A DNA stretch of 44,125 bases from Candidatus Hermodarchaeota archaeon. Its GTDB lineage: Archaea; Asgardarchaeota; Lokiarchaeia; Sigyniarchaeales; SOKP01. Position numbers and translations under genes: made by a program. Shown piece by piece: positions 12,092 through 17,627 of this stretch (within the stretch, counting starts at the first letter, position 1; the number at the start of each line of letters is the position of its first letter). The stretch is taken from the NCBI GenBank assembly GCA_048885535.1, contig JBHLLO010000019.1:1-44125 (forward strand), read 5' to 3'. Under the pieces are notes generated by a model. The model saw nothing but the letters and a program-made list of their open reading frames with translations, was not told the origin of the DNA and made no database searches.

Positions 12092-13009
12092 ATGACTGAA
12101 GATTGGATTGAATCATATATTAAGGCTGGTAAAGCGGTAATTGCTGCGAAAAAATTAGCAGAAAAGATCGTAAAACCCGGATTTTTATATTTAGAACTTG
12201 CTACTTTATGTGAAGATGAAATTTTAAACCAAGGATGTGAACTAGCCTTTCCTATTAACATTTCTTTAAATGAAATCGCCGCTCATTATAGTCCAACTAT
12301 AGATGATGAAACTGTTGTACCTCCTAAAGGCTTATTAAAAATTGATTTAGGAGCCCATTATGAAGGTTATATCGCAGATTCTGCATTTACTATTAATATT
12401 AACAATGATAAACTACTCCAAAATTATATTGACGCTGCTGAAGAGGGACTTGAAGCCGCAATTGCTAAATTTAAACCAGGAACTAAACTTTATGAGCTAG
12501 GAGAAGTTATAGCTGAAAAGATTATAAGTCATGGATTAAGACCAATAGTTAACCTTGGAGGCCATGAATTAAAAAGGTATAATTTACATGCAGGTCCGTT
12601 TATACCAAATTTTCGAGATACTAGTCACAATCAAACTCTAAAAGTAGGTGATTCCTATGCATGTGAGCCATTTGCGACATCTGGGGTAGGTAAAGTTGCA
12701 AATGGAAACCAATCCTATATTTTTCGCTTTGTTAGAAAAGTAAAAAAAGATCTCTCCATTAAAGATCAAGATTTTAGGAATAAAATTGAAAAAATAACAA
12801 AGCGTCTTCCTTTTTCACCTCGATTATTAGAAAAAAATGGTATTGAAAAACAAGAAGTCATTAGAATAATAAATAAATTTTTAAGGAAAAAAATTCTTGA
12901 TAATTATCCAATATTAATTGAGAGATCAGGTGAACCTGTTGCCCAACAAGAACATACAATTATAATAGATATGGATGGAAATCCAATTGTTATCACAAGA
13001 GAAAATTAA
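12092..13009 (+). CDS. map: Methionine aminopeptidase type II
   Basis: AFP, AAHYSP, KIDLGAHYEGYIADSA, NLGGH, LHAG, EPFAT, QQEHT. Confidence 0.96.
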   Translation: MTEDWIESYIKAGKAVIAAKKLAEKIVKPGFLYLELATLCEDEILNQGCELAFPINISLNEIAAHYSPTIDDETVVPPKGLLKIDLGAHYEGYIADSAFTININNDKLLQNYIDAAEEGLEAAIAKFKPGTKLYELGEVIAEKIISHGLRPIVNLGGHELKRYNLHAGPFIPNFRDTSHNQTLKVGDSYACEPFATSGVGKVANGNQSYIFRFVRKVKKDLSIKDQDFRNKIEKITKRLPFSPRLLEKNGIEKQEVIRIINKFLRKKILDNYPILIERSGEPVAQQEHTIIIDMDGNPIVITREN

Positions 13010-13862
13010 TAAAAGAGCTATCATCCCTGTTATCTTATGTGCTGGTAAAGGGACTAGGTTAGAAAAACTTACTAAAAAGGTTCCTAAACCATTAATCAGA
13101 TTGAAATCATTAAATAACAATTCTATACTTTCTTATTTAATTAAAAATCTTATAAATTTGCAGGTAAACACAATTGTCTTAATCACTGGTCACCTTAATG
13201 AGAAAATTGAAGCATTTGTAAATTGTTTCATAGAAGATAATCGAGAATTTCAAGGAGTATTAACACTAATTCATTCTGGAAGTGATTATGAGAAAGGACC
13301 CCTTTATTCTTTACTATCATTAATTCAGAATAAAAAGATTTTTAGGGATGGTAATATATACGTTATTCTTCCAGGTGACACTATCTTCGAAAAAGCATTA
13401 TTGAAAGAATCTTTTAGTTTAATTTATGAAAACTTAGATATAATTCAATCCAAACCATGTATTTTTTTCCAAGACATGCAAGCAGGTAACTTGATTAATT
13501 CTTATAAACAAAATAAGAAATCGATTACCAAATTTATCTCGATATTAGATTCAGAAGATGTAAAAAAAGGATTTATAGTAAAAGAAATTAGAAAAGATGA
13601 TTTGAATTCAGCCTCTAAAGAACAATATATTAAGTTAGTTGTCCCTATCCTGATTTTAAGTTATAAATTTATCAAGATTTTTAATGAACTTTCTGTAAAT
13701 AATCCAGTTGGAGAAATACGAGAAATTTTGAATATCTATTTACAAAAGCAAACTATATTCCCATTTAAACTAAATTCAAAAAATAGATTCTATGATATTG
13801 ATACTTTAGATGATTTAAGCTCATTCAATCAAATTAAAGGGAAAAAAAAAGGTGGACAATAG
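12975..13862 (+). CDS. Sugar-phosphate nucleotidyltransferase family protein
   Basis: VILCAGKGTRL.....PKPL, GD motif and C-terminal YDIDT.DD. True start uncertain because of the overlap with map. Confidence 0.8.
   Translation: MEIQLLSQEKINKRAIIPVILCAGKGTRLEKLTKKVPKPLIRLKSLNNNSILSYLIKNLINLQVNTIVLITGHLNEKIEAFVNCFIEDNREFQGVLTLIHSGSDYEKGPLYSLLSLIQNKKIFRDGNIYVILPGDTIFEKALLKESFSLIYENLDIIQSKPCIFFQDMQAGNLINSYKQNKKSITKFISILDSEDVKKGFIVKEIRKDDLNSASKEQYIKLVVPILILSYKFIKIFNELSVNNPVGEIREILNIYLQKQTIFPFKLNSKNRFYDIDTLDDLSSFNQIKGKKKGGQ
13842..13850 (-). terminator. Oligo-U terminator of the putative ncRNA
   Basis: T9 run on the minus strand, 2 nt after the 3' arm of the terminal helix. Confidence 0.55.
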
Positions 13863-14338
13863 TAGCTCCGATATACTCCGAAGAAATGTTTCAAAGGAAT
13901 CAACTATTACTTCTTCCTAAGAATACCCTCCCGGATCAAAGCCTCTATTGGCAAAACTGAAACTTTTTTAAAGAGCATTTTTGTTTTGTTGTCTCGAGTC
14001 TCAAAAAATTACTCAATACGACAAGAACTCATTTAATTCTTGCTCCTCAGTATAAATTATTTTTTCAATGTTAAAAATACATTTACTCTTACAATTTGCT
14101 CCAGAGTGCTACCATATCCGGATGCTTTTATGAGTTTGTGTATTAATTAATGTCTAAATTTCTGACGGTATAAATGTTATTCAATAATAATAAACAACTG
14201 GATTCAATGCCTCCATTAAATCCTTAGGTACCAAATAAAAAAAATCATTGGCTTTACCAAATTTACTAAATGGTCACAAGTTTTTCAACAGTGAACCGTA
14301 TTATTTGAATCAAAATCCAATGCAATACTATTGTCCAA
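13851..14338 (-). ncRNA. Putative large (~485 nt) structured non-coding RNA of unrecognised class
   Basis: No ORF of 60 aa or more; 12-bp perfect end-to-end pairing (14326-14337 with 13853-13864); at least six internal helices with minus-strand G-U pairs and a GAAA tetraloop; upstream TATA box and downstream U9. Confidence 0.7.
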
Positions 14339-14359
14339 TAAATTTAATGGTGAAATGAC

Positions 14360-14374
14360 TATTTAAATCTTTTT
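14360..14374 (-). promoter_or_regulatory. BRE-TATA promoter of the putative ncRNA
   Basis: Minus strand reads AAAAAGA-TTTAAATA, with the TATA centred ~26 nt upstream of the 5' arm of the terminal helix (canonical archaeal spacing). Confidence 0.6.
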
Positions 14375-14479
14375 ATTAAAAAGAATAATGAAGAATTGGT
14401 ATTTTAGATTGAATAATATCCATACAATTAAGAAAATTTAAAATAATATAAATATCAAAATTGATTCTATAAATAAATC

Positions 14480-14869
14480 ATGTCTGATAGTGGAGAAATA
14501 CCTATTAAAATTGATCTATTTGGAATTGGCACTTTAGATGGACATATAATAAGACATTTTGCTCCTTTATCTGCTGATGCCATTTTGGATAAATTACCTA
14601 TTATCCTAAGAGGAAGATTTAGCTTTGGTTCAAAAAAGCATTGGATACTTCCAGGAGTGGAAATCTTTAAAGGAAAGAATCCAAAATCCAAAGAAGAAGT
14701 AAAAAAAGGAGATATAATATATAATCCAAAAGCAGATGAACTAATCCTTGTTATCGAAAATTCCTTAATGCCTAATAAGGTTAATGTAGTTGGGAAAATT
14801 ACTAGCCCTCTTGATGTTCTTTTAAAAGCAAAAAATGGATTAAATACAAAAATCTCTAAAATTCCTTAA
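14480..14869 (+). CDS. Cyclophilin-like fold protein (DUF369/TM1367-like)
   Basis: APLSADAILDKLP, VKKGDIIYNP...LIL and VNVVGKI pattern. Confidence 0.65.
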   Translation: MSDSGEIPIKIDLFGIGTLDGHIIRHFAPLSADAILDKLPIILRGRFSFGSKKHWILPGVEIFKGKNPKSKEEVKKGDIIYNPKADELILVIENSLMPNKVNVVGKITSPLDVLLKAKNGLNTKISKIP

Positions 14870-15897: not shown

Positions 15898-16215
15898 CTA
15901 AAAATTTAATTTTGTAAGAGTAATTTCTATATTCGAAATTATATCCCTTTTTTGTTTTGGTTTTTGTCTACTTTTATAACCCTGTCGTTTATGATTATAA
16001 TAAGGGCGACTTCCTAATGAAATATTTGCAATCTCTATATTGGGGTACATCCGATGTTTCAAAATTTCAGCGACTTCAACAGCAGTTGAGATTTCATTTC
16101 CTTCTCCTTTTATCATTAATGATTTGGTCCCTCCTGAAAATGCAAAAATAGCATCTTTAATAGTCTTATCTTTATCAGAGCGCTTTTTTATAATTAACGT
16201 AGTATCATTAACCAT
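15898..16215 (-). CDS. Divergent Alba-family nucleic-acid-binding protein
   Basis: IKGEGNEISTAVEVAEIL, ISLGS and ISNIEITL match the Alba pattern (IKARG.AIS.AVDVAEI...IGS...VS.IEI.L). Confidence 0.75.
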   Translation of the reverse strand: MVNDTTLIIKKRSDKDKTIKDAIFAFSGGTKSLMIKGEGNEISTAVEVAEILKHRMYPNIEIANISLGSRPYYNHKRQGYKSRQKPKQKRDIISNIEITLTKLNF

Positions 16216-16394: not shown

Positions 16395-17627
16395 TCATTC
16401 AAATTCTGAACGATTATTTAAATCATCCAAAATTATTTGATATTCAGAACTTCTAGATTCAAAATGTTCAATTATTTTCCGTTCGTCTGTATCCAGATAA
16501 TCAAAATAGGGAGATATTATTTCTATTCGCTTAGTGAATTCTTCGATTATTTTATTATACCACTCATTCGGCTTAGCTAATAATGTTTGAACTTTTTTGC
16601 TGTATTTCCCTCTTTTTTGTTTGAGTTTAACCTTATCATTATTTTTTTTAATCTCAAGTAAGGATTCTTCAAACCCTTTAATCTGTTCTTCAATTTTTTC
16701 TCTAAACTTTGGGATTCTATAGCTTTTTTTAAAAAATTCTGGATCCCATTCATATAAATATCTGTCATCTTCTTCAGCTTCCTCTTCATTATCTGTAACT
16801 TTAATATCACTTTTAGGTACCAAAATTAAACCATAGTTTCTTTGCAGTTGAGCTAAGTACCTCTTACGTAAAATCTCATCAATATATTTTACTTCTTTTA
16901 ATATTCTTTCTATATTTTCGTCTATATCAACAAATATAGGCTCAACTTCCTTTACCATCTCTTTTTTTCCAAATTCATACTCTAATTCTGCAAAATCATA
17001 TGTAGAAAACATTCCTCGATCTGGATTTAGTATTCTTAATGCTGCAACTCCAAGAAAAAAATCTGTTGACTTTAATTCACAGTGATCAAAAATTAAACCC
17101 ACAGCAAACGGATTTGGAATTTGATAACCTAATTGAGTTAAACAATCTACTGGACTGAAGAAAAACTTAAAACCAGGATGTGAGTGCCACCATCCAACTA
17201 TAAAATCATTCTTTTTATCTTGAATAGACTTTTCATAAATAGAAGCATCAATTTGGGCCATATCGACGTATTGTTTATTTTCATATTTCACCCCTGCGCG
17301 ATCTCCTACTACCATTGGAATAGCATCTTTTACAATAACGTTTTTGTTATTTTCAATAGATCCAATTAAAATTCCATAAACTTCACGCCAATTTCTTGTT
17401 GATAATTTGTTATTAGCGTACCTTATTGCATATCCCGCCATTCTTCGGTATGCATTTAACTTTAACAATACAGGAGCTTTTGCAGGATCTATTCCATATT
17501 CTTGTTTTAATTTAGCAGTTGGAGATAATTCTGTCATGTCTTTAGATTTCAATGAATCGTTATTTTCTTCATCGCTTTTTCCTTGATTGAAGTTCATCTT
17601 TTGTTCATTAAATTTTTTTATTGACAA
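16395..17627 (-). CDS. MPN+/JAMM metalloprotease (Rpn11/CSN5-like) with C-terminal coiled coil
   Basis: REVYGILIG and VGWWHSHPGFKFFFSPVDCLTQ give an intact E..HxH..S..D motif. Confidence 0.88.
   Translation of the reverse strand: MSIKKFNEQKMNFNQGKSDEENNDSLKSKDMTELSPTAKLKQEYGIDPAKAPVLLKLNAYRRMAGYAIRYANNKLSTRNWREVYGILIGSIENNKNVIVKDAIPMVVGDRAGVKYENKQYVDMAQIDASIYEKSIQDKKNDFIVGWWHSHPGFKFFFSPVDCLTQLGYQIPNPFAVGLIFDHCELKSTDFFLGVAALRILNPDRGMFSTYDFAELEYEFGKKEMVKEVEPIFVDIDENIERILKEVKYIDEILRKRYLAQLQRNYGLILVPKSDIKVTDNEEEAEEDDRYLYEWDPEFFKKSYRIPKFREKIEEQIKGFEESLLEIKKNNDKVKLKQKRGKYSKKVQTLLAKPNEWYNKIIEEFTKRIEIISPYFDYLDTDERKIIEHFESRSSEYQIILDDLNNRSEFE

Follow-up and report, generated by a model that had tools for sequence, protein, structure and literature searches.

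The stretch analyzed here, 44,125 nucleotides (nt) of contig JBHLLO010000019.1 from the Candidatus Hermodarchaeota archaeon assembly GCA_048885535.1 (hereafter the window), carries on its minus strand, at 13853-14338, a stand-alone and probably independently transcribed gene for a noncoding RNA (ncRNA). We are confident that the product is a real structured RNA that represents a new family. As far as we searched, this RNA family is confined to one family of Promethearchaeia (Loki-type Asgard archaea). The initial annotation had proposed a large, independently transcribed, structured ncRNA of a class that it did not recognize, and this proposal is supported by comparison with Rfam, by conservation, by covariation and by contigs from RNA libraries.

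The gene occupies the gap between two plus-strand open reading frames (ORFs), the convergent 12975-13862 (an NTP_transferase-domain protein) and the divergent 14480-14869 (a cyclophilin-like protein). As annotated, the gap is free of genes: neither strand holds an ORF of at least 40 amino acids (aa), and in 66 copies of the region the longest sense ORF has a median length of 30.5 aa and shifts in position. The end arms, UGGACAAUAGUA at 14337-14326 and UACUAUUGUCCA at 13864-13853, the promoter-like box and the U9 run past the 3' arm (which follows a CC) had all been placed exactly; we read the spacing from the TATA box to the 5' arm as 22 nt. The sequence reads AAAAAGATTTAAATA at 14374-14360, UUGGACAAUAGU begins 22 nt past the promoter on the minus strand, and ACUAUUGUCCA follows about 460 nt beyond it. 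The predicted start of transcription is the opening base of the terminal helix (P1), about 22 nt past the TATA box, and the predicted stop is the oligo-U run two bases past that helix. The primary transcript probably extends beyond 13853 into the U-run.

These signals recur in relatives. TTTAAATA or TTTATATA is found at the same distance in all 20 copies from the genus that were displayed without a promoter filter, and the same 20 copies have both P1 arms unchanged and a T-run. A filter that required the promoter was passed by 38 of 39 genus loci, giving 38 copies of 346-516 nt. The promoter AAGATTTAAATA is present in other genera as well, and a T-run lies 3' of the 3' arm in every displayed copy from the genus and from other genera. 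Related copies overall range from 346 to 624 nt in length. We saw no likeness between this promoter and those of the RNase P and signal recognition particle (SRP) RNA genes of the same genome.

Comparison with Rfam 15 (4227 models, including those for small nuclear RNAs (snRNAs), small nucleolar RNAs (snoRNAs), RNase MRP, Y, vault, 6S, OLE, GOLLD, ROOL and HEARO RNAs and ribozymes) matched no known class. The whole window gave no match at the gathering score, a 1-kb region around the gene gave only four chance-level matches (expect value (E) 0.36-7.6), and 15 homologues from five genera, searched at E up to 5, gave four unrelated matches (E 0.31-3) with no family occurring twice. RNase P RNA (RF00373) and SRP RNA (RF01857) are not matched in the window; the genome encodes the former at G000:C4:57308-57632 (121.1 bits) and its best copy of the latter at G000:C32:30892-31219 (L023, 76.7 bits). 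Because both were found on other contigs, we reject these identities, as the initial annotation had done. The SRP RNA score falls below the Rfam gathering score of 96.5 bits, so automatic annotation would miss that gene in this lineage.

Three further classes were considered and rejected. For a box C/D small RNA, UUUGAU and CUGAG flank helices A and B (see below), but the CUGA does not adjoin a stem pairing the sequence before the C-like box. A cis-regulatory leader or riboswitch is contradicted by the terminator that follows P1 and by the downstream minus strand, which is the antisense of ORF 12975-13862. A mobile element with terminal inverted repeats is contradicted by a single full copy in this genome, by one match per genome in nearly all genomes and by fixed neighbors. 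The literature consulted on Asgard (Lokiarchaeota) ncRNA and archaeal structured RNA, short of supplements that might list candidates, describes no such RNA.

The expected conservation in relatives was found in both the genus and the family (f1). A DNA search of 41 relatives recovered the region from 21 of the 24 other genomes in the same genus (g1), five of them at full length with 75-79% identity and the rest at both ends only. A 16-base pattern from the 3' arm matched in 38 of 41 genus genomes; one-mismatch matches outside g1 lack a partner arm and were thus dismissed as chance. A covariance model of the 3' half (R1; 183 positions, 25 pairs), run with Infernal's stricter filters, matched 92 of 131 f1 genomes, with one full-length match each in nearly all (g1, 37/41; g22, 48/53; g21, 5/8; g19, 1/1; g13, 1/1), and none of 19 genomes from the order's three other families. 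When the phylum was sampled evenly, R1 matched 17 of 25 f1 genomes and none of 125 genomes from 26 other families.

Genera missed by R1 still carry the gene, as identified by synteny and by a 5' signature (arm, 1-25 nt, GCAUUGG). In G152 (g23) and G048 (g12), a stretch of 522 or 622 nt behind the NTP-transferase orthologue has the same promoter type, arms, GCAUUGG and T-run, with a different interior. Of 161 genomes in the class, 54 have the 5' signature, once each; every one of these belongs to f1 (g15, g16 and g23 included), and none of 26 genomes of other families has it. A reversed-pattern control gave four matches. The copies of g12, g15, g16 and g23 share just P1, GCAUUGG and the position of the 3' hairpin. 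We attribute this sharing of the ends alone to the fast evolution of the interior.

A few matches fall outside this pattern. The G014 bin (contamination 9%) has two copies of the RNA (C57:3200-3381 and C117:824-1006) and G077 has a second, weak match; two strains in one bin seem likelier than duplication. In the window's own genome, 50 nt at G000:C17:12623-12672 (L002) are 81% identical to RNA positions 154-204 (E 1.2e-4), probably by chance in an AT-rich region.

Base-pair covariation, one of the checks proposed in the initial annotation, exceeds both slid and shuffled controls. Run on MAFFT alignments, plain RNAalifold recovers hardly more than P1 and helix A, since the variable regions are misaligned, and an all-against-all scan for pairs was dropped because U-runs matched to G/A columns drowned its signal. 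P1, the terminal helix predicted at the outset, covaries across genera. Over 58 copies from five genera (alignment A4), 98.7% of the cells of its 11 pairs are paired, and four pairs have changes on both sides: U-A (40 copies) with A-U (10); G-C (57) with A-U (1); C-G (53) with U.G (4) and U-A (1); and U-A (38) with G-C (6), A-U (5), U.G (2) and G.U (1). A g12 copy adds a further exchange, from C-G to U-A. In one g22 subgroup (L102, L104, L105, L106, L109 and L118) P1 is shifted outwards: the inner pairs are gone (5' arm AAUUUG) and GAAAAGGACAAU pairs with AUUGUCCUUUUC, into the terminator U-run.

Just inside P1, the columns of GCAUUGG are invariant or at least 90% conserved in the 58 copies, and the motif is kept in the divergent copies of g12, g15, g16 and g23. 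It is unpaired in the model-fitted alignment A7. The initial annotation had paired CAUUGG with CCAAUG. This helix is not supported, as it clashes with the covarying U-loop hairpin H4, which takes the CCAA; moreover, CAUUGG is invariant family-wide and the proposed partner is not, and both changes in G010 break the proposed pairs. A long-range pairing of GCAUUGG with UUAGUGC, about 150 nt downstream, is possible in groups other than the window's (80.6% paired, against 32-54% when slid), with just two cells changed on both sides. In the window's group the UUAGUGC block, which also pairs with GCACU, is degraded, and its pairing with GCAUUGG is missing.

The 5' domain is laid out as a helix H2 around a two-part H3, followed by the hairpin H4 with its oligo-U loop. 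A second covariance model (R2), built from 20 copies of this domain, matched 49 of 66 loci. In the resulting alignment, 76.7% of cells are paired (31-48% when slid), 23 of 25 pairs are changed on both sides, and 136 cells show such double changes (at most 68 when slid). Slid alignments reach a covariation score of 0.128 at most, compared with 0.289 here, and none of 500 shuffles reaches any of five measures. Covariation is found in four helices of this domain. In H4, all six pairs have changes on both sides, and a stem of at least five base pairs (bp) surrounds the U-run at this site in 38 of 58 copies, against a fraction of 0.35 with shuffled flanks; the stems differ by group (UCUGG/CCAGA, AUCAAAGA/UUUUUGGU, UGUGA/UCACA, UUUCC/GGAAA and UCCGA/UCGGG). 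The GGUUCAC/GUGACC hairpin of the initial annotation lies in the position of H3, which covaries in relatives, and its outer pair changes from G-C to A-U in the G021 group; the window's copy of this hairpin was left unaligned by the model.

The center of the RNA evolves fast, and several helices that had been drawn there fared less well. The 10-bp hairpin at 14223-14200 is present but confined to nine of 58 copies, those of the window's group and the G021 group. Its loops vary. Both stem strands are identical in all nine apart from a single A-to-G substitution in G019, at the third base of the stem, so there is no covariation. The proposed GCAUCCGGA/UCUGGAGC helix is missing from the nearest relatives: G010 shows a C.A mismatch, and in G018 the 5' strand is deleted. 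Like CAUUGG/CCAAUG, it is probably wrong. For GCAAGAAUU/AGUUCUUGU, a GCAA/UUGU core recurs and the remainder does not. A mid helix between GCACU and an upstream AGUGC has 69.8% of its cells paired; the upstream partner has decayed in the group to which the window belongs. Few stretches of the RNA are as well conserved as CUCUUGU and ACGAGACA. At the second U-loop hairpin that they would form, 24 of 58 copies have stems of at least five bp. Shuffled flanks give 0.41, which by this crude test puts the hairpin at the chance level. In several groups, (U/C)GAA and UGAUAC flank this second U-loop beside UGU/ACA, so that two GA dinucleotides face each other, together with a U.U pair, in a kink-loop (K-loop)-like pattern; neither the group of the window nor the UGCUAC groups show it.

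The 3' domain is a long irregular hairpin, and its GCUUUGAU/AUCGGAGC and CCGGG/UUCGG pairings, both annotated initially, were recovered as the covarying helices A and B. In a MAFFT alignment of 38 copies, 87.7% of cells are paired (34-53% when slid) and 44 are changed on both sides (at most 31 when slid). The model-fitted alignment of 58 copies gives 83.1% (31-52%) and 82 (at most 49), respectively.

The folding energy is suggestive rather than decisive. The minus strand folds at -118.9 kcal/mol, where its shuffles average -97.0 (z -3.45; one of 100 shuffles as good), and the plus strand at -92.1 kcal/mol (z -2.67). The two U.G pairs of helix A are present in 52 and 49 of the 58 copies. Since U.G pairs in helix A and P1 would be C.A mismatches on the other strand, they argue for an RNA structure read from the minus strand. 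Where the initial annotation had counted at least six wobbles, we retain five in supported helices (two in A, two in B and one in H4), with one more in the hairpin 14223-14200 that does not covary.

Metatranscriptomes support the presence of this sequence in RNA libraries. Seven wetland runs contain 0.17-0.19 of the sampled words, and contigs of 333-442 nt from RNA libraries match about 13852-14288 at 95-97% identity in four runs. These four runs, compared with the window, come from four coded studies of one year and one habitat, and thus perhaps from one campaign. Shorter contigs below 90% identity continue into the copies of other species. Apparent Illumina adapter abuts the match in two contigs: one X11 contig carries 18 such letters immediately ahead of 13853, where P1 ends, and in the X12 contig 20 such letters come right after 14288. 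The former is a weak hint at the 3' end. On 13600-13837 and 14314-14600 no contig with at least 80% identity was found, which is not evidence of absence and from which we draw nothing.

Positions of the RNA gene, its elements, matching RNA-library contigs and adjoining genes in the window.
Feature	Positions	Strand	Remarks
RNA body	13853-14338	-	486 nt, first to last base of terminal helix
Promoter TTAATAAAAAGATTTAAATA	14379-14360	-	A-rich stretch like a B recognition element (BRE), plus TATA box 14367-14360
P1, 5' strand UGGACAAUAGU	14327-14337	-	11 pairs
GCAUUGG motif	14317-14323	-	3-18 nt past P1; nearly invariant
Hairpin GGUUCAC...GUGACC	14272-14297	-	Window counterpart of H3; predicted by folding
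H4, GCCAA(UGAU8AU)UUGGU	14230-14252	-	Oligo-U loop, U8 at 14237-14244
10-bp hairpin GGAUUUAAUG-GAGG-CAUUGAAUCC	14200-14223	-	From sequence and folding
Conserved block AGCACUCUGGAGCAA	14096-14110	-	GCACU..GGAGCA in relatives
Core UUCUUGU...U6 loop...ACUCGAGACAAC	13988-14027	-	Hairpin with second U-rich loop; register ambiguous
A-rich tract CUUUAAAAAAG	13963-13973	-	T-run on plus strand, about 100 nt past stop of ORF 12975-13862
3' domain	13865-13942	-	Long irregular hairpin: helices A and B, hairpin C
Helix A GCUUUGAU/AUCGGAGC	13935-13942 with 13865-13872	-	Two nearly invariant U.G pairs
Helix B CCGGGAG/CUUCGGA	13928-13934 with 13877-13883	-	Varies by group
Hairpin C	13890-13923	-	Part of 3' domain
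P1, 3' strand ACUAUUGUCCA	13853-13863	-	Overlaps TAG stop 13860-13862 (+) of convergent ORF
U9 run	13850-13842	-	Intrinsic archaeal terminator signal; CC between P1 and run
X11 record 3	13854-14242		390-nt contig; 13 other letters, 1 gap
X12 record 6	13866-14288		442-nt contig; 17 other letters, 5 gaps
X13 record 11			388-nt contig
X17 record 17			333-nt contig
NTP_transferase-domain protein	12975-13862	+	Convergent; PF00483, E 2.9e-12; last codons in P1 3' arm
Cyclophilin-like protein, 129 aa	14480-14869	+	Divergent from RNA; PF04126, E 1.2e-4, below cut-off

Neither of the adjoining genes is tied to the RNA, since the cyclophilin-like gene is widespread and the NTP-transferase gene is missing in g16. 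The divergent arrangement of the RNA with the cyclophilin-like gene is found in g1, g23, g12 and g16. Across the phylum, 92 of 151 genomes encode this protein, so that it does not mark out those bearing the RNA; in eight genomes from other families, the region upstream of its gene is coding and holds no such RNA. NTP-transferase orthologues adjoin the RNA in g23 and g12 and are absent beside it in g16, where the convergent gene encodes an M24 peptidase that lies one gene further off in the window. The NTP_transferase protein has sub-threshold matches only in NCBIfam, and NCBIfam and PDB sequence searches on the neighbors returned nothing specific. The plus-strand T-run at 13963-13973 may terminate the convergent gene, in which case the 3' end of its messenger RNA (mRNA) would be antisense to the 3' domain of the RNA. 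The NTP-transferase and RNA transcripts may therefore overlap tail to tail.

At 1.5-3 kb from the RNA, the minus strand encodes an Alba-domain protein (15898-16215; PF01918, E 1.2e-10) and a JAB/MPN-domain protein (16395-17627). Alba proteins bind RNA. An archaeal cyclophilin-like gene with 67% identity to that of the window was also found on DATKTW010000163.1 (L145), which is titled Nanopelagicaceae bacterium and is probably an archaeal contig placed in the wrong bin. In a genome from a different family (L166; G154:C1, about 251,033-251,400), approximately 400 nt upstream of the cyclophilin-like gene lack a long ORF and include G+C-rich stretches, and may be another RNA gene.

As to function, we tentatively favor a stable, trans-acting, protein-binding scaffold of a ribonucleoprotein (RNP), and would put this somewhat short of an even chance. 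We prefer it because conserved sequence elements combined with a fast-evolving interior are typical of RNAs that are read by proteins. Trans action is suggested by the terminator directly after the RNA and by the same strand downstream, which is antisense to the convergent gene. P1 ties the two ends together, with the 3' hairpin domain stacked under it, and in such a particle it would protect both ends. The elements that are kept in sequence, rather than in mere pairing, would be docking sites for proteins or for another RNA; the candidates are the P1 arms, GCAUUGG, the tandem U.G pairs of helix A, the two U-rich loops and the U tail.

Several points weigh against the RNA gene or the scaffold role as we describe them. 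By z-score the folding stands out modestly, and the plus strand, too, beats its shuffles. Alignments A5 and A7 are model-fitted and so biased towards the structures that they test, and the related copies are not independent; the MAFFT-based counts for P1 and the 3' domain agree in direction with the model-fitted ones. The window's own 5' domain scores 37.5 bits against R2, and its H2 is weak. For CUCUUGU and ACGAGACA there are several alternative registers, possibly including a pseudoknot, and the center of the RNA is likewise ambiguous. The contigs from RNA libraries cannot show strand, ends or level, and such libraries can contain DNA; we therefore count them as support for presence in RNA libraries. 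The gene contains internal T8 and T6 runs, at which some premature termination by the archaeal polymerase is to be expected. Finally, the scaffold role is inference only.

Other explanations account for part of the evidence. It is unlikely, in our view, that the RNA is a cis-antisense regulator that pairs with the 3' end of the convergent mRNA (that of the NTP-transferase, or of the M24 peptidase in g16); a variant is that convergent transcription itself controls this gene and that the structure serves mainly for stability. The convergent ORF does end within the 3' arm of P1, the next plus-strand T-run lies about 100 nt into the RNA gene, which would make the mRNA 3' end complementary to the 3' domain, and the convergent arrangement is kept in g1, g12, g16 and g23. 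However, the convergent partner varies among genera whereas P1, GCAUUGG and the architecture persist, and about 400 nt of covarying structure lie outside any overlap. A ribozyme for RNA processing or another reaction, with CUCUUGU, ACGAGACA, the GGAGC repeats and the tandem U.G pairs as its active site, would suit the size, the multi-domain fold and the sequence-conserved unpaired or irregular stretches, which resemble those of large ribozymes generally. We consider it improbable: an active site would not usually be lost, yet the core is absent from some genera (g12, g15, g16 and g23). Moreover, neither a pseudoknot nor a known catalytic motif was found, and no ribozyme in Rfam was matched.

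A very divergent member of a known family (RNase P/MRP, SRP, snoRNA-like or Y/vault-like) could in principle have been missed by the covariance models. Paired ends with a U tail, a conserved terminal stem and a variable interior are common to several of these RNAs and are shared here, and the low score of the genome's SRP RNA indicates that the models are strained in this lineage. Nonetheless, both RNase P and SRP RNA are encoded elsewhere in the genome, and nothing recurrent was found at E up to 5-10 in the window and 15 homologues, which makes this explanation very improbable. We give hardly any credence to the idea that the region is no RNA gene at all, but the inverted repeats of a dead mobile element, regulatory intergenic DNA or a gene for a small protein. 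Two inverted repeats of 11-12 bp around approximately 480 bp would fit, and changes in both arms could arise if the arms must match as DNA sites. Against this stand the single-copy, syntenic occurrence, the U.G wobbles in P1 and helix A, the covariation of internal helices, the promoter and terminator in the RNA sense, the contigs from RNA libraries and the lack of a conserved ORF.

The RNP scaffold that we favor can be set beside known RNAs. To our knowledge, very few large structured archaeal RNAs are known beyond ribosomal RNA, RNase P RNA and SRP RNA. This RNA is an object for biochemistry in the archaeal lineage closest to eukaryotes: its helices covary in three domains, its ends are invariant in sequence, each genome has one copy and metatranscriptome libraries cover it. 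Alignments A3/A5 and A6/A7 amount to two covariance models and can be used to annotate the gene in new genomes. Like archaeal RNase P RNA, it is a large, stand-alone structured RNA with paired ends and one copy per genome; unlike in RNase P RNA, the helix beside the 3' side of P1 closes a local hairpin and does not pair with the strand next to the 5' arm. With archaeal SRP (7S) RNA, itself an abundant scaffold, it shares paired ends and a promoter of its own.

Y RNAs, which are end-paired, U-tailed RNP RNAs, have a conserved terminal stem, a fast-evolving interior and a 3' U-run, as here. The new RNA is four to five times longer, matches no Y or vault RNA in Rfam, and has no Ro-type gene that we could see beside it. 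U-runs are found at two fixed places, and the two A-U(6-9)-G/A stretches and the 3' U tail resemble Sm-type sites; compared with Sm-class snRNAs, however, the U-runs lie in hairpin loops rather than between stems, and no snRNA model was matched. The GA pattern at the second U-loop hairpin of some groups recalls the kink-turn (K-turn) and K-loop RNAs of L7Ae-type RNPs, with no match to a C/D model. As a speculation of low probability, the RNA could be the core of an unknown RNP (or ribozyme) that arose in one Asgard family and recruits Sm-like and/or L7Ae-type proteins through its end-helix, GCAUUGG, the two oligo-U loops, the U tail and the K-loop-like GA motif. If true, this would be an archaeal particle built on the principles of eukaryotic small nuclear and small nucleolar RNPs.

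The closest kind of object is found among the large, lineage-restricted RNAs of bacteria. OLE, GOLLD, ROOL, HEARO and raiA RNAs are likewise several hundred nt long, have many covarying helices and a narrow range, and do not reveal their function from sequence. All of them are Rfam families, and none of their models was matched. Those RNAs are bacterial or phage-borne, whereas the RNA described here is archaeal, is preceded by a TATA promoter and has a fixed chromosomal place. As an RNA class, it is new.

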